Source: a virus (Duplodnaviria; Caudoviricetes). From it: DNA of 25,255 nucleotides. The translations under genes were made by a program, and so were the position numbers. The DNA lies in the IMG/VR virus record IMGVR_UViG_3300033076_000737, positions 1-25,255 of that record, one strand, 5' to 3'. Under the pieces are notes generated by a model. The model was not told where the DNA came from. It did not search any database and worked only from the letters and a program-made list of their open reading frames with translations. Shown one piece after another: positions 1 to 22,291 of the stretch. Positions within the stretch are counted from its first letter, which is position 1; each line of letters opens with the position of its first letter.

Positions 1-1317
1 AGCGGGTTGTACTGCTCTGATGGCTGGATGGATCCAGACTATTCCAGCACGGCAATGGGGCATGATGTAGACATCACGACGGCTATTGAGTCACTGAGTC
101 TGTCGCTTGGTGAGGATGGCAGAACGAGTCTTGAGATGACAACCCGTGTCAAGCGTCTCATTGACCTTGGGGTATCTCAGCCAACCATCACGGGTGATAG
201 ACCGATTGCAATACAGCTCAAGTCAAACCATGCAACAAAGCAATGGGTAGACCTATTTCGTGGGACACTTAGCCCACCAGAAATCGTGTATGAACCTGGA
301 GAAGGTGGCCCGCAGTTTAGCCTACTACGTTTCACGGGTGAAGACCGATTCGGTGACTTTGATGTATCAATGTGCCAAGAGTCTGTACCGCTTGATGGCG
401 AGAGTATTGGCGGGGTGTTTTATAACATCATGCCACTGGCTGGTTATGACCCTGCCGTATATCTTCAGCAGAACCATAGCAGTACATTTACCGTGCCACA
501 GAGTGCAGAGATATCAAAGGCTGGATATGCCTTCATTCCGAAGCGTGGAGACTATCCCGGCGGTGTCCTTCAACAGTTCCGCGATACTTATCTTGCGAAC
601 TATTACATGGGCTGGAAGCCTACCGCACTCGGAACTCCGGTAGGTGGTTATATGCTGGCTATCTCAGACCCTGCATATGTTGGCAATGCCATTGCCGTGA
701 CGCTTTACCAGTCTACTTACGATGCCATTGCTTACGGTTCATATACAGCAGCTCAGGGTGCGAAGCGCACAGTTCGTAACATGAAGAGGTACTTTGAAAG
801 CCCAGAAGCAAACCAGATTGCTGTGATTGGTGCAGACCCTAAAACCAATCAACTGCTTTACAACTTTGCTTACGTTGATGTCAATAGCCAAGACCCAACC
901 TACGCACCATCTGCAAGGCCTCAGAACTGGCGTGGACGGCCTGTTGAGTACATCTTGAGTGAACCATCCCTAACGACCCAAACAGCGGTAAATCAGGCAG
1001 CTGAACTTCTCGGCGATAGGTTAATCAATGGACGGCAGTTGATTGAGTGGGAGTCTGACCTTTTGACTTATCAGGATGTAGATGACCATCTAAACGTTGT
1101 CTGGATTGGTGATGTTGTTGAGATTCTTGAAGAGTCAGACCCTAACAATCCGCTAGACCCTCCGGCGGTGCTTGGTACATATCAGGTCGTGAGTATTCCG
1201 CAGATGCAGTTCGTCAAAGAGCAGGTTACGGATAACACATTCACGCTGAGGCAATGTGTATACAAAGGCATCTATAAGTCTGGTGTAACGTCTTACATTC
1301 CGGGGCCGGGAGAGTAA
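1..1317 (+). CDS. Tail/baseplate hub-like virion protein, 5'-truncated
   Basis: The frame is open from base 1 (AGC GGG TTG...). The C-terminal segment EPSLTTQTAVNQAAELL...WIGDVVEI resembles tail-tip/hub proteins. It is TAATG-coupled to the next structural gene and lies upstream of the lysin. Confidence 0.5.
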   Translation, partial: SGLYCSDGWMDPDYSSTAMGHDVDITTAIESLSLSLGEDGRTSLEMTTRVKRLIDLGVSQPTITGDRPIAIQLKSNHATKQWVDLFRGTLSPPEIVYEPGEGGPQFSLLRFTGEDRFGDFDVSMCQESVPLDGESIGGVFYNIMPLAGYDPAVYLQQNHSSTFTVPQSAEISKAGYAFIPKRGDYPGGVLQQFRDTYLANYYMGWKPTALGTPVGGYMLAISDPAYVGNAIAVTLYQSTYDAIAYGSYTAAQGAKRTVRNMKRYFESPEANQIAVIGADPKTNQLLYNFAYVDVNSQDPTYAPSARPQNWRGRPVEYILSEPSLTTQTAVNQAAELLGDRLINGRQLIEWESDLLTYQDVDDHLNVVWIGDVVEILEESDPNNPLDPPAVLGTYQVVSIPQMQFVKEQVTDNTFTLRQCVYKGIYKSGVTSYIPGPGE

Positions 1318-4223
1318 TGGCAACCTATATAGACCGAAGCCGTAAGAGTGAGGTTACCTGTTCGATTGCCAGTAACCTGCGAGTTCATGTCTACCCGTCT
1401 GACATCCCTACACCTGATGACCTAGATATATATGGGCCTGTATTTGGAACGCTAACCTTTGGATCTAATCAACAATCCGGAAGCGTCTTGATATATGGAT
1501 GGGGCAGTACTTCGGGCTTTGGTACATCTGCTTGGACGTGGCAAGTACGTGCCGATGTGATGACCAATAATGGATTTGGAGTAACAAGCACATCCACTTT
1601 TGTTCTTCAATCTGGCACAGGTACGGCAGCAAATGCGCTCATCGGAATCAGTGTAAACGTAGGCGCCTTGAGCATTGCATGGACTGGCACAGTAGACCAA
1701 AGCACAGTTTATTGGGATATCACACAGGCGGCTTTCGGCGGTGCTGGTTCTGATTATCCAGACATTACCTACGACTCATATGAGACTAGCAACGTAGGCG
1801 GTACTGCTACGGCAAAGATTGTAATCAACGGGCAAACCAAGACAAGCTCAGGAGTCATGGCCAGTGCTTCACCTATGACATGGGATTTGCGCCTTGGTCT
1901 TAGGATGTGGAACAACACCACCGTCGCTCAAACCTTGACGGTATCTCCGGGTGTGTGCAACGCCATCAGCCTCACAAGCAGTGTGCCGGGATATAGCCAC
2001 TCCTACGTTTCTCAGGTGGCCACAGCAACGCAATATGTAGTGACTGGCTTTGGTAATACGCTCCCAGCGGCAAACATCACTGGAACGACCAACATTACAC
2101 TGCGTCGCTTGATTCGGATGAAGGGCAGGATTCGCAGCTACAATCTCAATTATTACGATGACCTTGATTGCCGCATCACTGGCTTTGATATGCCGCTCGG
2201 ATATAGGGACATCACTGCAACCGCTGGACAGTTCCAAGAGGATGCAGCCTTCCTAAAGACCTACGTGCAGACAACCATACAATCTTGGAATGGTAGTGGC
2301 ACGGTAACGCAAAGCAACAGCCAGACGGTAGACACAATCCCCACAAGCATATCTGCCGATATCAAAGCATCAAGCCTTGAAGCTCTTGGTGATGACAGCA
2401 CAAACACAAAGATATCTTTCCGTGGTTGGTCATTTCCTGGCGCGTCCGTCATACAGGCAGATGAGACAAACGTTTCCATCGGATCCATTGCAGACACTCG
2501 AACCTTTACGCATCCCGGCTTTGGGTTGAACTCATACCGATATCTAAAGGTTCAGCTCAAAGCACCAAGCGGTACAACGCACAACGGCACAATAAGCATC
2601 AACTACGAACCCAACAACATGACAAAGTCATGGGAGGTAAGCACCAATAGTGCAACCTTCATCGATGTCTATCTTGACCTGTGTAGTCCTCATAACAAGA
2701 CATCTACACTTGATGAAACCGACCATCCATACCCAAGGATGAATCCGTTAGACCCTAATAACACTACACAGATGCAGGATGGAGACTATTGGGGAATCAC
2801 TCGCATTACGCAGATTGCGCTTGGGCATACTGGCTTAGTGATGGGCGATATCAAGCTTGTGGTTCAAGGCCCTGATTCAGACTACACCAAAGGGTACTGG
2901 ATGCCTGCAAGGGCATGGAATAAACAGCAGTTCACAACGTTTGCAGGCGTGACATATACGACCAATCGCCACTTCTTGGCTGACTGTCAAGGTAACAGTA
3001 TGACGGAAGAAGGTTGGGCAGTTTGGCAGTCCAGCCCAGCGACCAATACCATCAGCACGATTGCAAACTTTGTATCTGCAATCAATGCGGTGGATGGCAC
3101 TGTGAAGCGTCACCAAGGCTACACAGCGAGCATCAGTACACCGCTGGCAAATGCTACCTATATTCGTGATGGCTACTGCAACAGCACGACTGGACACGCT
3201 TACTGGTTAGGCGGGACAACATTCAAAACAGTCGGTGGTTCGGCTGAAATCAAGAACTGGATCGAGACCGACCAAAGCGATGACGGGCCAGAAGCCGACG
3301 TGTTAGCGCAGACGTACTTTAGATCAATCAATGGTGACTTTGTTCCGGATATGCTTGATGTTTTTCAGCAGGACGATGCAGGAGCCACTTGGCTTTCAAT
3401 AGGTGCTGTGTCGTACCAGCGTGGTCGCTCTCATGGGTTGGTTCTTGCTACCAATGCAGACCCGCTTGAAGCTGAGACCGTGCAGTTGGTGCTTGACTCA
3501 GACGGCTCTGTTCGTGGTTCTGGTGTATCGGATGTCATAGGGCGGTACTACACCGCACAACCGATGGGACTTGGACAGAAGAACCACAACACTATATGTC
3601 TGGCGCAGAATAGCGGAGACCCTGACCCACTCTATGTGAACAAGTCTTACCGCTTTGTCTTTAAGAATCCAGCACCTACGGGACACGTATTCTCAGCTGA
3701 TAGAAACCCGATATACGAACACTTCTATGCAACCGTGCAGAGTGGTGATGTGTCGTTGTGGCGAGCTAACGGCCCACTCGGAACAGACTACGTTGAGACA
3801 CCGACAACCATAACGGGAGTGACCGACCTTGCGATTCGATGCCTACGCAGAGATGCCGAGCTTGGAACGATTATCTTCACTCAGGAATCTGGTGGTCTCA
3901 AACGTTACTACACAAGCAACGATGGAGGAACTGTAAGCGTGGCAACAGTCATAAACTCAAGCGGATCTCATCCGGCTTTGGTGGTTGATAACCAAGGGCA
4001 GGAGATATACATCTGGCGCACTAGTGGTTCCGATATCCAAAGCAAGATTCTAGATGCTTCAGGAACCGTTGTAATGGCCACCACGACGGTTGTTACAGGT
4101 AACGTGGCTAATGACTCAATTGCAATCTATGAGCGTCTGGATGACCTATACATCGTATACAACCATCAGAGCAATGGCATCACGGTTGTTAGGTCGGTAG
4201 ATGGCGGTAGAACTTACGCCTAG
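1317..4223 (+). CDS. Large Thr/Ser/Gly-rich tail/receptor-binding protein (968 aa) with C-terminal Asp-box-like repeats
   Basis: Beta-rich composition, last gene of the tail module, with Asp-box-like motifs TSNDGGTV and RSVDGGRTY near the C-terminus. Confidence 0.55.
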   Translation: MATYIDRSRKSEVTCSIASNLRVHVYPSDIPTPDDLDIYGPVFGTLTFGSNQQSGSVLIYGWGSTSGFGTSAWTWQVRADVMTNNGFGVTSTSTFVLQSGTGTAANALIGISVNVGALSIAWTGTVDQSTVYWDITQAAFGGAGSDYPDITYDSYETSNVGGTATAKIVINGQTKTSSGVMASASPMTWDLRLGLRMWNNTTVAQTLTVSPGVCNAISLTSSVPGYSHSYVSQVATATQYVVTGFGNTLPAANITGTTNITLRRLIRMKGRIRSYNLNYYDDLDCRITGFDMPLGYRDITATAGQFQEDAAFLKTYVQTTIQSWNGSGTVTQSNSQTVDTIPTSISADIKASSLEALGDDSTNTKISFRGWSFPGASVIQADETNVSIGSIADTRTFTHPGFGLNSYRYLKVQLKAPSGTTHNGTISINYEPNNMTKSWEVSTNSATFIDVYLDLCSPHNKTSTLDETDHPYPRMNPLDPNNTTQMQDGDYWGITRITQIALGHTGLVMGDIKLVVQGPDSDYTKGYWMPARAWNKQQFTTFAGVTYTTNRHFLADCQGNSMTEEGWAVWQSSPATNTISTIANFVSAINAVDGTVKRHQGYTASISTPLANATYIRDGYCNSTTGHAYWLGGTTFKTVGGSAEIKNWIETDQSDDGPEADVLAQTYFRSINGDFVPDMLDVFQQDDAGATWLSIGAVSYQRGRSHGLVLATNADPLEAETVQLVLDSDGSVRGSGVSDVIGRYYTAQPMGLGQKNHNTICLAQNSGDPDPLYVNKSYRFVFKNPAPTGHVFSADRNPIYEHFYATVQSGDVSLWRANGPLGTDYVETPTTITGVTDLAIRCLRRDAELGTIIFTQESGGLKRYYTSNDGGTVSVATVINSSGSHPALVVDNQGQEIYIWRTSGSDIQSKILDASGTVVMATTTVVTGNVANDSIAIYERLDDLYIVYNHQSNGITVVRSVDGGRTYA

Positions 4224-4224
4224 A

Positions 4225-4294
4225 TAAAAGAGGCGGTGGGCGGCGAAGATGCAGTTGGGAGACCGCCCACCTAGTCAGGGAGATAAGGACTGAC
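4225..4294 (-). ncRNA. Candidate ~70-nt antisense sRNA with two UCUCC(C)-containing loops
   Basis: Extended -10 TGATATATT (minus, 4309-4301). 5' hairpin GUCAG/CUGAC (4294-4274), 9-bp GC stem 4271-4263/4243-4235, then a short U-run. Confidence 0.45.
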
Positions 4295-4311
4295 AAAAGG
4301 AATATATCACT

Positions 4312-4848
4312 ATGAATAGACCTATTGCACTTAGAGCCGCTAAAGAGGCACTCGATAATGTTGGTGTACAGGAAGTAGGAGATAACAGGGGCAAGGCAGT
4401 TGAGACATATCAACAGGCTTGTATTCCACCTGTTCCACCCGGTAGCCCTTGGTGTGCTGCCTTTGTTGTGTATCGCCTACGCAATGCCGCTCACGACTTA
4501 GCCATTGAGATACCAGCAGACTGGCCACGCTCGGCATACTGTCCGGATCATGGCAACTGGGCTCGAAGAACAAAGAACTGGTTATCGGCGAAGGATGCAG
4601 AAGCAGACCCTTCAAAGGTACGCATCGGTGACCTTGTGTGCTTCTGGTTTGCTCCGCTGAACCGTCTAGCACATATCGGTATCGTGACGGGTGTTTATCC
4701 TTGGGGTGTCAAGACCGTTGAAGGTAACACCAGTCCAGAGATGGATGATGAGGATGGCGTAGAGCGCAATGGTGATGGTGTCTATCGCAAGATAAGAGCA
4801 TGGCGAGAGCTCGGCAGTAACGGTGGTTTTGTAGCGATTGACTGGTAG
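4312..4848 (+). CDS. CHAP/NlpC-type cysteine-histidine peptidoglycan hydrolase (endolysin)
   Basis: PWCAAFV (catalytic Cys), GDLVCF, HIGIV (His) and TVEGNT motifs. AAGGA RBS upstream. Confidence 0.85.
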   Translation: MNRPIALRAAKEALDNVGVQEVGDNRGKAVETYQQACIPPVPPGSPWCAAFVVYRLRNAAHDLAIEIPADWPRSAYCPDHGNWARRTKNWLSAKDAEADPSKVRIGDLVCFWFAPLNRLAHIGIVTGVYPWGVKTVEGNTSPEMDDEDGVERNGDGVYRKIRAWRELGSNGGFVAIDW

Positions 4849-4871
4849 GTTCCATTTTGGAACTAACCACT

Positions 4872-4922
4872 AACTGTTTCCATTTTGGATAAGGTTGAAC
4901 TTGTAAGAAAACCTTACAAGTT
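4872..4922. repeat. 51-bp direct repeat copy 1, made of two 25-bp palindromes
   Basis: AACTGTTTCCATTTTGGATAAGGTT (4872-4896) plus AACTTGTAAG-AAAAC-CTTACAAGTT (4898-4922). A further GTTCCA-TTT-TGGAAC lies at 4849-4863. Confidence 0.9.
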
Positions 4923-4925
4923 GAC

Positions 4926-5020
4926 ACAAAAAGACCCGGCTGGTAGACCGGGTCTTTCTGTCGCTTACCAAGCACCAAATGTAGTTGTTGTTTCCAAACA
5001 TAGTCAGGATTGCTCCTGCC
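4926..5020 (-). ncRNA. Candidate ~95-nt sRNA
   Basis: TTGTGA-N18-TAAACT on minus (5056-5027), 5' CAGGA-GCAA-UCCUG GNRA hairpin, ending in the 4928-4958 terminator. Confidence 0.35.
4928..4958. terminator. Intrinsic terminator, probably bidirectional, between convergent late and leftward transcription
   Basis: Perfect 10-bp stem AAAGACCCGG/CCGGGTCTTT with an A-run on the left (U-run on minus) and TTT on plus. Confidence 0.75.
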
Positions 5021-6111: not shown

Positions 6112-6336
6112 TTACTTATCTCCCATCAACTGTTCTGGTGTACCCTTGTGCCAGTACACGTCTTCATACCGATATTCAAAGCAAACCGCATCAAGGTTCT
6201 TTCCTGCTGGCCTTACCCAGTAGCCACGGTCATCCATCGTGACCATCTTATGGTTTGCATACTTACCATCGGTGTAGGTCATGCCGTACTGCATGGCTCT
6301 CTTGAGTAGGAACGCTGCCTCTTCTTTCGTTATCAT
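6112..6336 (-). CDS. Hypothetical protein (74 aa, MITKEE...)
   Basis: ATGA overlap with the upstream gene at 6336-6333. GGGAGG RBS. Confidence 0.65.
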   Translation of the reverse strand: MITKEEAAFLLKRAMQYGMTYTDGKYANHKMVTMDDRGYWVRPAGKNLDAVCFEYRYEDVYWHKGTPEQLMGDK

Positions 6337-7033: not shown

Positions 7034-7070
7034 ACTATTATTCTCCCTGCCCCCTTTCGGGGGCTTTTAC

Positions 7071-7250: not shown

Positions 7251-7285
7251 TGTCTTTATCTCCCGTACTACTGCGGTACACAATG

Positions 7286-7313
7286 ATTATACATCAATAA
7301 TATATATTGTCAA
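7286..7313 (-). promoter_or_regulatory. Consensus host sigma-70 promoter driving the leftward operon
   Basis: TTGACA-N16-TATAAT on the minus strand. Confidence 0.8.
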
Positions 7314-7354: not shown

Positions 7355-7576
7355 ATGATTCGAGGATTATCCCAGCAACAGCTGGCACGTAAAATTGGTG
7401 CAACCCAGCCACAGGTATCCGACTGGATGACCGGGAAGAAGACACCAAACAGCGGTAATCTTTCCAAGCTCGCTGAAGCCATGGACATGGCAGAGGAAGA
7501 CTTGGCAAGGTTGCTCACCATTCGTCGTAAGAGTCGGAATAAACCGACCGAACAACCAGAAACATTCGAGAACTAG
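7355..7576 (+). CDS. XRE/Cro-family HTH transcriptional regulator
   Basis: GLSQQQLARKIGATQPQVSDWMTGKKTP...LSKLAEAM is an HTH_3 pattern. ATG 7355 is probably leaderless. Confidence 0.85.
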   Translation: MIRGLSQQQLARKIGATQPQVSDWMTGKKTPNSGNLSKLAEAMDMAEEDLARLLTIRRKSRNKPTEQPETFEN

Positions 7577-7600
7577 ATAAGGTAATAGGGAGACAAGGCA

Positions 7601-12442: not shown

Positions 12443-12502
12443 TAACGGGTAACTTGTAATCGGGGGCAGGGTAACCTGCCTCCATCTTGGGAGATAAAGA
12501 CA

Positions 12503-12838: not shown

Positions 12839-13071
12839 CCGGGCATTACCGGACATCCCAGATTCAGGCCCTCAGCGTCATTGACGACTGGGGGCTGGAC
12901 TTTGCAACAGGGAATGTCCTCAAATACATCCAACGAATGCCACACAAAGGTACACCTAACGCCGACAGCATCAAGGCACTCTGGTATTTGGCTTATGCCA
13001 TCACTAGGGACGTTGCCTTTGCTGATCGGATTGCAAGCGAAGCGGGGGAGATAAATGGCGAGACCAAGTGA
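12835..13071 (+). CDS. DUF3310 (SaV-like / T7 gp1.7-like) protein
   Basis: HY...I.A..VI.DW.LDF..GNVLKYI.R...K....D..KA.WYL signature. Confidence 0.8.
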   Translation: MTGHYRTSQIQALSVIDDWGLDFATGNVLKYIQRMPHKGTPNADSIKALWYLAYAITRDVAFADRIASEAGEINGETK

Positions 13072-13465
13072 GAGCGTTGCATATGGCATCGCAAAACGAA
13101 AGTTACTGCTGGAACGCTGGGATGAGCTTGTAGCAATGGGTATGCCACAAGCACAGGCATCCAAAGAGATTGGTTACAACTACTCCACGGTAAAGGTTTG
13201 GCTTGCTAATCGACAGGTCGAGCAGTTGAAAGAAGAAGATGCCAAACGGCTAACAATGGCTGGTGGTTCCTTCTCGGCTGCCCTTGAACGCCTCAGAGCG
13301 GGACAGGCGGTACGAAGACACGGAGCTTCTTGGTTCCTTGAGTTGGTAGATGGCAAGATATGCCTGTACCTGATTGATGGTGCTGGTAATCGACGTTACA
13401 GCAGGGTGGCATCTTTCGGATCCGCTGATGTCTTGGCTACCGACTGGGAGATATACCAACCATGA
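13055..13465 (+). CDS. HTH + DUF2829/Tad2-like fusion protein (paralogue 2)
   Basis: N-terminal GMPQAQASKEIGYNYSTVKVWL (HTH). C-terminal SFSAALERLRAGQAVRRHG...ADVLATDWEIY. Confidence 0.7.
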   Translation: MARPSESVAYGIAKRKLLLERWDELVAMGMPQAQASKEIGYNYSTVKVWLANRQVEQLKEEDAKRLTMAGGSFSAALERLRAGQAVRRHGASWFLELVDGKICLYLIDGAGNRRYSRVASFGSADVLATDWEIYQP

Positions 13466-16796: not shown

Positions 16797-16815
16797 AAAT
16801 ATATCTCTTATATCC

Positions 16816-16844
16816 TTGCAGTATATATACTTAGAGTGTATATT
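16816..16844 (+). promoter_or_regulatory. Moron promoter (host sigma-70 type)
   Basis: TTGCAG-N17-TATATT in an AT-rich patch. Confidence 0.6.
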
Positions 16845-16877
16845 ATTGACATCCAAGGGGATATGGGAGAGACGGAT

Positions 16878-17093
16878 ATGAAACGATACTTGGTTCAGTG
16901 GATGACAAATGATAAGTCTTACGGCTACTACTTCGATGATTTCGCAGACGCTTCGGACTACGCACAAATCACCGGTTGGAAATCTAAAATCAAAGATGTA
17001 ACGACAAACGAAATCATCCTAGCCTTTCAAACAAAAAACAATCAACGCTGGATGATGACATCGGATAAAAAGTGGCATAACTTCAACCGCTAA
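16878..17093 (+). CDS. Moron: AT-rich hypothetical protein (71 aa, MKRYLVQW...)
   Basis: Own promoter, GGGAGA RBS and terminator. Inserted between SNase and portal. Confidence 0.7.
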   Translation: MKRYLVQWMTNDKSYGYYFDDFADASDYAQITGWKSKIKDVTTNEIILAFQTKNNQRWMMTSDKKWHNFNR

Positions 17094-17149: not shown

Positions 17150-17160
17150 TGTGGGATACT
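17150..17160 (+). promoter_or_regulatory. Late promoter motif TGTGGGATACT, copy 1
   Basis: Exactly 6 nt before the portal ATG, with no SD. Confidence 0.8.
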
Positions 17161-19938: not shown

Positions 19939-19949
19939 TGTGGGATACT
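19939..19949 (+). promoter_or_regulatory. Late promoter motif TGTGGGATACT, copy 2
   Basis: Exactly 6 nt before ATG 19956. Confidence 0.8.
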
Positions 19950-22280: not shown

Positions 22281-22291
22281 TGTGGGATACT
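22281..22291 (+). promoter_or_regulatory. Late promoter motif TGTGGGATACT, copy 3
   Basis: Exactly 6 nt before ATG 22298, just after the capsid terminator. Confidence 0.8.

Follow-up and report, generated by a model that had tools for sequence, protein, structure and literature searches.

The 25,255-nt sequence of the IMG/VR record IMGVR_UViG_3300033076_000737 (Duplodnaviria; Caudoviricetes), which in its full length we call the window, carries a small promoter–hairpin unit in the 88 bases separating the stop of a structural gene (4223) from an endolysin gene (4312). Judging from related sequences, it is probable that the minus strand of this unit makes an RNA of ~70 bases whose loop pairs with a lineage-specific tag over the ribosome-binding sites (RBSs) of many early and middle genes of the phage, likely blocking their translation together. 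This reading is carried by the unit itself and the structure-preserving changes in it, by the confinement of the tag to non-structural genes and by a match between loop and tag in six lineages. Within lineage A, the window phage and its close relatives, the unit is composed as follows (window coordinates):

4301..4309, minus strand: predicted extended −10 promoter, TGATATATT (TG-N-TATATT; here TG-A-TATATT); the hexamer is conserved in relatives
4295..4300, minus strand: six bases separating the −10 from the predicted +1; read on the plus strand, this gap overlaps the endolysin Shine-Dalgarno (4297-4301)
4225..4294, minus strand: predicted small RNA of ~70 nt, based on fold and conservation; its 3′ end is uncertain
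4274..4294, minus strand: hairpin 1, which opens at G4294, with a 5-bp stem (4294-4290/4278-4274) and an 11-nt loop (4289-4279), the seed
4235..4271, minus strand: hairpin 2, GC-rich, with a 9-bp stem (4271-4263/4243-4235) and a variable C/U-rich loop of 19 nt, with UCUCCC at its start
4224..4234, minus strand: pyrimidine tail with four U, a non-canonical terminator tail in lineage A

An original prediction, made from the sequence alone, had placed an extended −10 on the minus strand with the +1 at about 4294, at the start of a hairpin. This geometry was confirmed: from the −10 at 4309-4301 (−) six bases lead to G4294, the first base of hairpin 1. The second hairpin described there, with a GC stem of 9 bp and UCUCCC in its loop, is present as well. 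Of the U-run said to follow it, four U are indeed found, but they lie five bases past the stem and a terminator scan yielded no call on them. Folding of the 71-nt minus strand gave −24.6 kcal/mol with a z-score of −4.45, and none of 200 shuffled sequences folded as well. The seed in the loop of hairpin 1 (4279-4289) is complementary to the start tag GGGAGATAA(G). Hairpin 2 is likely to serve as terminator stem plus second pairing surface. Its UCUCCC loop had also been proposed as an RBS binder, which was not borne out: no gene family of the phage reached a median complementary run of 8 nt to loop 2, and early starts scored only slightly better (p 0.003). Loop 2 (4244-4262, −) is variable in length, but a few bases, GCUG or GCAU, are retained next to its C-rich part. 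No conserved −35 element was found upstream of the −10; the hexamer GTGCAA, 18 bases upstream, was considered and rejected, since it is made of endolysin codons and its spacing differs in relatives. Rfam searches returned 0 matches at E<=1 in the window, and in 6 related loci only a tRNA together with a sub-threshold match on that tRNA.

A search with the endolysin retrieved 54 loci, 46 of them at 83-95% identity, and the unit was present in all 45 close loci with sufficient upstream sequence. In a pattern scan, 46 of 49 stretches were members of the family and three were chance hits; the distant locus L325 contained no unit, and L427 is a truncated locus. The loop, on whose conservation the original prediction depended, proved invariant in its seed TTATCTCCC in 29/29 aligned copies, and this seed is unpaired with a probability of at least 0.99 in 46 distinct lineage-A copies (median 0.61 in the more distant lineage B, see below). 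Of 261 cells in the stem of hairpin 2, 99.2% are paired; three of its nine pairs have changed on both sides, and its covariation score exceeded that of 500/500 shuffles. Six bases ahead of the G, TATA[TC]T was found in 47/47 lineage-A contigs with sequence at this site; the search pattern itself demanded TATA[TC]T, yet no contig with sequence failed. The gap between −10 and +1 is always six bases, with the −10 lying 5 nt from the endolysin ATG in 38 contigs and 2 nt in 9. Four A-type loci found later read TATAGT, and the varying position is thus one that a −10 element tolerates.

The sequence GGGAGATAA occurs five times in the window, at four gene starts and in the element itself, compared to a mean of 0.10 in shuffled sequences, and none of 100 shuffles reached five. 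The predicted targets are:

7252..7264, minus strand: target tag, 12/13, before the 59-aa first gene (7250) of the leftward early operon
7038..7049, minus strand: target tag, 8-nt run, before the gene of an Erf-like annealing protein
6115..6124, minus strand: target tag, 10/10, before a Mu Gam-like gene
7587..7598, plus strand: target tag, 11/12, before gene 7601, upstream of the phage sigma factor
12489..12501, plus strand: target tag, 12/13, before gene 12503
13046..13054, plus strand: target tag, 9/9, before gene 13055, an HTH plus Tad2-like gene (PF11195 match below the curated cut-off)
13446..13453, plus strand: target tag, 8-nt run, before thymidylate synthase

The matches quoted in the original prediction for 7250(−) and 12503(+), for the Gam-like gene and for 13055 were reproduced exactly, and the one before 7601 is right when a stem base is counted. 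Six early starts in the window match loop 1 in perfect runs of 8-10 nt, whereas late starts reach at most 6, and the predicted duplex spans the Shine-Dalgarno and the spacer of the tagged starts. Throughout lineage A, GGAGATA was found in 107/432 distinct early/middle start windows and in 0/462 late ones. Counted by gene families, 27/64 early/middle families carry the tag as opposed to 0/32 late (structural) ones (Fisher p 1.9e-6); gene calls and families are those of a simple caller of our own that missed or misplaced some short genes. Independently of this caller, 122/133 distinct GGAGATAA contexts are closely followed by a reading frame with ATG. Among 121 near-matching windows, selected at <=1 mismatch, GGAG is followed by A, T, A and A in 112-117. 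We compared the preference of the seed for early over late starts of the window (20 early, 14 late; one early window was three bases off) with that of shuffled seeds, and the real seed exceeded 1000/1000. With the anti-Shine-Dalgarno core CUCC kept fixed it still exceeded 994/1000 (6/1000 were as large), so that a strong Shine-Dalgarno alone does not account for the tag. Nor is an unusual 16S end in the host a likely explanation, because the structural genes do without the tag.

Searches with capsid, endolysin and tail genes, the last being the large gene that ends the structural block, reached further lineages at 43-63% capsid identity or below. In lineage B, 61/61 contigs show TATA[CA]T, six bases, a G and a hairpin with a direct U-run, and the open seed matches AGGA[CT]TAGG. 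The two genomes of lineage C have TATCCT and a loop matching GGAAGGAG, and in lineage D (9/9 loci) the loops of eight loci match GGGGAAATT, the ninth showing a variant. The early side of lineage D contains 31 distinct GGGGAAA-ATG contexts and the tail side 0; in the D locus with a loop that lacks the AATT match, three orthologous starts have also changed, to AAAA. Among 85 further tail-gene loci, many of them redundant, 83 carry the unit, one is truncated and one is without it; these add lineages E to H. Lineage E (L370:4969-5030) presents a minimal unit of ~48 nt with one hairpin, the loop of which is complementary to a canonical Shine-Dalgarno. The loop of the AT-rich lineage G (L377:8760-8860, L385, L387) is complementary to the start codon region, not to the Shine-Dalgarno.

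When the seed of each lineage was scored against the gene starts of every lineage, the lineage's own seed gave the maximum of each row at early starts (A 125/466, B 27/316, C 6/30, D 13/81, F 6/20, G 4/9), and own-seed matches at late starts were A 2/531, B 5/248, C 0/39, D 0/53, F 0/20 and G 0/5. Only 1/720 permutations of this table was as diagonal. The seeds of F and G were fixed before their gene starts were displayed; lineage H had no early starts to score. Within lineage B the loop occurs in two forms: contigs with a T-form seed contain 35 T-form and 2 C-form sites, and contigs with a C-form seed 53 C-form and 10 T-form sites, the helicase start following the form of the seed in 9/9 and 18/18 sites. 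The excess tolerance runs in the direction allowed by G-U pairing on a minus-strand RNA, which it fits weakly. Loop and RBS motif thus covary both between and within lineages, the check that the original prediction had proposed. Its minus-strand RNA with a dispersed early/middle regulon gains comparative support from stem compensation, the −10/+1 geometry, the early-only tag and the loop–tag covariation.

The strand is indicated by two features of the unit. A TAnnnT hexamer followed by six bases and a G was found in lineages A, B, C, D, E and G, and the strand that carries it also shows direct U-runs 3′ of the stem in lineages B, C, D, E, G and H; promoter geometry and U-runs, in six lineages each, together argue for the minus strand.

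Several observations weigh against the proposed RNA and its pairing. The energy of folding picks no strand, the minus strand being lower in 21/46 and 27/47 cases; lineages F and H (6 loci) are without the geometry of six bases and then G, and lineage A has no canonical U-run. For lineages A to D, the start motifs were already in view when the seeds were selected. Lineage E gave 0/3 own-seed early matches, and the G seed also matches 24/248 late windows of lineage B, which makes G a weak case. In lineage B the enrichment in families is not significant (5/30 vs 0/20, p 0.075), the margin in the seed table is small (9% vs 6%) and one family retains the C form under a T-form seed. Moreover, the seed switch in this lineage needs <=3 changes on the endolysin tree and a single origin is possible; since the switches are so few, the site counts given above overstate independence. 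The tag is present in only about a quarter of early windows, and in lineage A the base after GGGAGATAA, the tenth tag position, does not track the RNA subtype. Contigs from RNA libraries were considered as a sign of expression and rejected: they carry neither strand nor level and we counted them as no evidence. In two such runs the depth of the bin 4209-4309 compared to the upstream gene was 47.9 vs 4.6 and 235.5 vs 78.4; a run that is probably DNA also contains a piece with its end at 4295, and a run of uncertain kind peaks over the element as well. Finally, covariation of loop and tag is likewise expected if a protein reads both.

Such a protein, for which the phage factors RegA and RegB could be models, would bind the tag as its RNA site, and the element would then act on the plus strand as a decoy or as a site at the end of the late message. 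The plus strand folds equally well and displays the tag in a loop, and a protein that changes its specificity would produce the same covariation. We nevertheless regard this account as improbable. It leaves unexplained why the minus strand has a −10 at fixed spacing to a G as well as U-runs, the seeds differ widely across lineages, with one of them spanning the start codon itself, and the C/T asymmetry of lineage B fits G-U pairing, if weakly. No candidate protein turned up, although no systematic search for one was made.

A different role could be suspected from the genes on both sides of the unit:

1317..4223, plus strand: large gene ending the structural block, called tail gene from its position; the unit lies 3′ of it in every lineage, sometimes past a short spacer
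4312..4848, plus strand: CHAP-domain endolysin, which adjoins the unit in lineages A, B, C, E, F and H, not in D or G

PHROG and Pfam scans of gene 1317..4223 gave no match. The original prediction held the RNA to be cis-antisense to the endolysin leader as well and offered, as an alternative, plus-strand hairpins with GGA loops resembling CsrA/RsmA sites that control the timing of lysis. CsrA sites have the consensus ANGGA. A cis element for lysis timing of either kind would agree with the endolysin being directly next in six lineages and with the promoter overlapping its Shine-Dalgarno, and an antisense RNA has been proposed at the endolysin gene of phage PAK_P4 (PMC12197685). However, the unit persists where another gene follows, namely in lineage D (9/9 loci) and lineage G (3 loci). 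ANGGA is missing from loop 1 in 37/46 distinct copies, where CG precedes GGA, and no ANGGA occurs anywhere in 23/46; the endolysin Shine-Dalgarno is for the most part free of pairing (median 0.68 and 0.61). Because the predicted RNA starts at 4294, this Shine-Dalgarno lies outside of it and only the promoter overlaps it. The tags of the early genes would also be left unaccounted for. With no endolysin next in D and G, ANGGA not conserved and the endolysin Shine-Dalgarno free, lysis timing is contradicted as the main role, both as cis-antisense and as CsrA-like control, and we rate it the least probable of all explanations considered here. A secondary effect on lysis may exist.

The P4 CI RNA is grouped with c4 as a phage trans-acting antisense RNA. 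c4 of P1 and P7 acts in trans with loops that cover an RBS on its own mRNA, loop and target change together between phage types, and the RNA, with a fold of three stems, is released from its precursor by RNase P and controls a single antirepressor operon of a temperate phage (PMC5320573, PMC12197685). The unit resembles c4 in its size of ~70-77 nt and in loops complementary to RBSs of its own phage. It differs in having two separate predicted hairpins, its own predicted start and many dispersed targets, in the lack of any integrase found and in giving no match to an Rfam covariance model. In Staphylococcus aureus, the unpaired UCCC-type loop motifs of RsaE and RNAIII are predicted or shown to pair with many Shine-Dalgarno regions (PMC3861533). 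An unpaired C-rich motif in a hairpin loop is found here too; RsaE and RNAIII, in contrast, are host RNAs with a short generic core, whereas the seed of the phage unit runs 9-13 nt into a private phage tag, and Rfam gave no sequence family match. SviR, from the PLE satellite, is also an RNA of a mobile element that acts in trans, and its several targets include operons of that element itself (10.1101/2022.04.08.487710); it belongs to a satellite–phage conflict, and its abstract describes no shared start tag. The unit works like c4 and RsaE in the proposed scheme and is a member of neither. The predicted RNA would be made and would pair with the tags and, on the model of these two, its pairing would repress.

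In the mechanism that we favor, a host-type promoter on the replicating template would give rise to the predicted short, stable RNA. Its loop would nucleate on the tag and cover the Shine-Dalgarno and spacer of many early genes. With less certainty, the RNA may accumulate in lytic growth and act as a brake on early translation, and ribosomes might thereby be freed for the structural genes, several of which are apparently leaderless and untagged. The sequence TGTGGGATACT is found at 17150-17160, 19939-19949 and 22281-22291 (+), six bases ahead of the ATG of portal, protease and gene 22301, and lies six bases ahead of an ATG in 36/40 distinct lineage-A contexts. It is likely that these sites are late promoters for messages lacking a leader, and the phage sigma factor perhaps recognizes them. 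As the late messages are seemingly leaderless, an anti-RBS RNA could not touch them. In lineage B, CACAAT is located 6-7 bases ahead of the portal ATG.

The same RNA and the same pairing could serve another purpose, the silencing of early genes in a carrier state or of those of incoming kin, like c4 in P1 immunity. This is the main rival, though we consider it unlikely. The motif upstream of the structural genes, GATA[CG]T, differs from the TAnnnT hexamer of the unit, which is of host type and so could fire without phage proteins; the seeds are lineage-specific, like immunity types, and c4 acts in this manner (PMC5320573). A brake in lytic growth is favored because no integrase domain was found: neither PF00589 (tyrosine) nor PF07508 (serine) was detected in 5 records each, 4 of them at >=90% complete, and scans of 30 and 32 proteins gave no family linked to integration or partition. 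Moreover, the seed is nearly invariant within a lineage, so that close kin would not be told apart.

The RNA might also help the tagged starts instead of repressing them, for example by shielding from nucleases or by opening structure. Tags are kept before fast-changing small genes, possibly to their benefit, and the sign of regulation cannot be read from the sequence alone. We think this very unlikely, as the duplex would cover the Shine-Dalgarno and the spacer, and the published cases of such a geometry, c4, RsaE and RNAIII, repress.

[quoted passage not shown] Its role is still called unexplained in the 2024 and 2025 papers; the 2011 paper leaves an RNA or a protein reader possible and reports one reversed SAS copy in four K1 genomes. 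The tag studied here is likewise a repeated asymmetric sequence a few bases before starts (in the 122/133 contexts ahead of an ATG frame), is confined to non-structural genes (27/64 vs 0/32; in lineage D 31 vs 0) and is conserved beyond the Shine-Dalgarno core (6/1000 in the shuffle with fixed core). In contrast, it does not follow the 13-base consensus of cluster K and it differs by lineage, so that we are dealing with the same kind of feature and a separate element; it also has a partner unit in nearly every relative that covaries with it. In Adephagia we found the single reversed SAS copy in a hairpin loop within the gap between genes 92 and 93 (L295:38660-38720), a gap conserved in 193 records. 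A conserved TAGACT hexamer is located upstream of the hairpin. This gap is reported to be the place where late transcription starts, and the same paper lists gp39 as Hfq-like. The mirror loop is present in 3/12 aligned cluster K phages, altered in 3 and absent in 6, and two phages with an altered loop retain the standard SAS; found in only some of the phages, with altered cases keeping SAS, it cannot account for SAS as a whole. The idea of an anti-SAS RNA throughout clusters K and EF was thus rejected (AnnaSerena 6708-56707 and TM4 27000-52797 only were covered).

The literature searched contained no description of the RNA unit or of an RNA partner of SAS or a phage start tag, most subscription papers being outside its coverage, and a catalogue of viral structured RNAs (PMC10690425) gave no match in 6 supplementary files, files 1, 2 and 4 lying outside the search. 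The conserved unit is real, and the comparative support is strong for anti-RBS regulation in a form that we did not meet in this literature. Early-translation shut-off in phages is usually credited to proteins. If the RNA acts as proposed, 70 bases would constitute a protein-free master switch over scattered genes of the phage itself via a co-evolving tag. We see an even chance that this extends to a general principle of RNA-addressed regulons, in which a private tag is placed in many early RBSs, including those of newly acquired genes, and one RNA with a swappable loop switches all of them off. The address would then have changed at least six times in this phage family and the RNA along with it; part of SAS would be explained in the same way, the late leader of Adephagia, a cultured phage with a laboratory host, being a directly testable case. 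The unit offers a concrete candidate answer to the question of 2011, what reads SAS, and the natural series of matched loop/tag pairs provides ready-made compensatory controls.

The window is a 25-kb part, 83% complete, of an uncultured tailed phage of ~31 kb, and runs with this phage or its relatives carry aquatic or freshwater labels. It contains a structural block, the CHAP endolysin, a leftward early operon (Erf-like, Gam-like) and a rightward operon in which an HTH gene is joined by those for a sigma factor, primase, helicase and thymidylate synthase. With regard to the host, the closest named phage is only 25% identical, the sole genome match is a phage-like contig within an archaeal bin and the named relatives of the sigma factor are 30-37% identical. 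Before the leftward early operon we noted a near-consensus sigma-70 promoter (TTGACA, 16 bases, TATAAT) at 7286-7313 (−); it and the HTH gene, which apparently has its conserved start at 7355, lie back to back. Between the endolysin and the converging early operon lies an inverted repeat (4928-4959) with A and T runs on its flanks, which looks like a two-way terminator, though the terminator scan gave no call. Short palindromic repeats (TTCCATTTTGGAA, TTGTAAG...CTTACAA) are found 3′ of the endolysin at 4848-4925; in lineages B and C (L192, L210) the same repeats sit between the tail gene and the RNA unit. A small gene at 16800-17093 (+) between terminase and portal has its own AT-rich promoter-like region and a GGGAGAGA start. 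Directly 3′ of the endolysin, the lineage-B genome G001 carries a tRNA gene (L181:5185-5269, +). At the corresponding side of the endolysin, genome G010 contains a gene for 298 aa (L293:3971-4864, +) with relatives in lineage C and a weak match to a calcineurin-like phosphoesterase.
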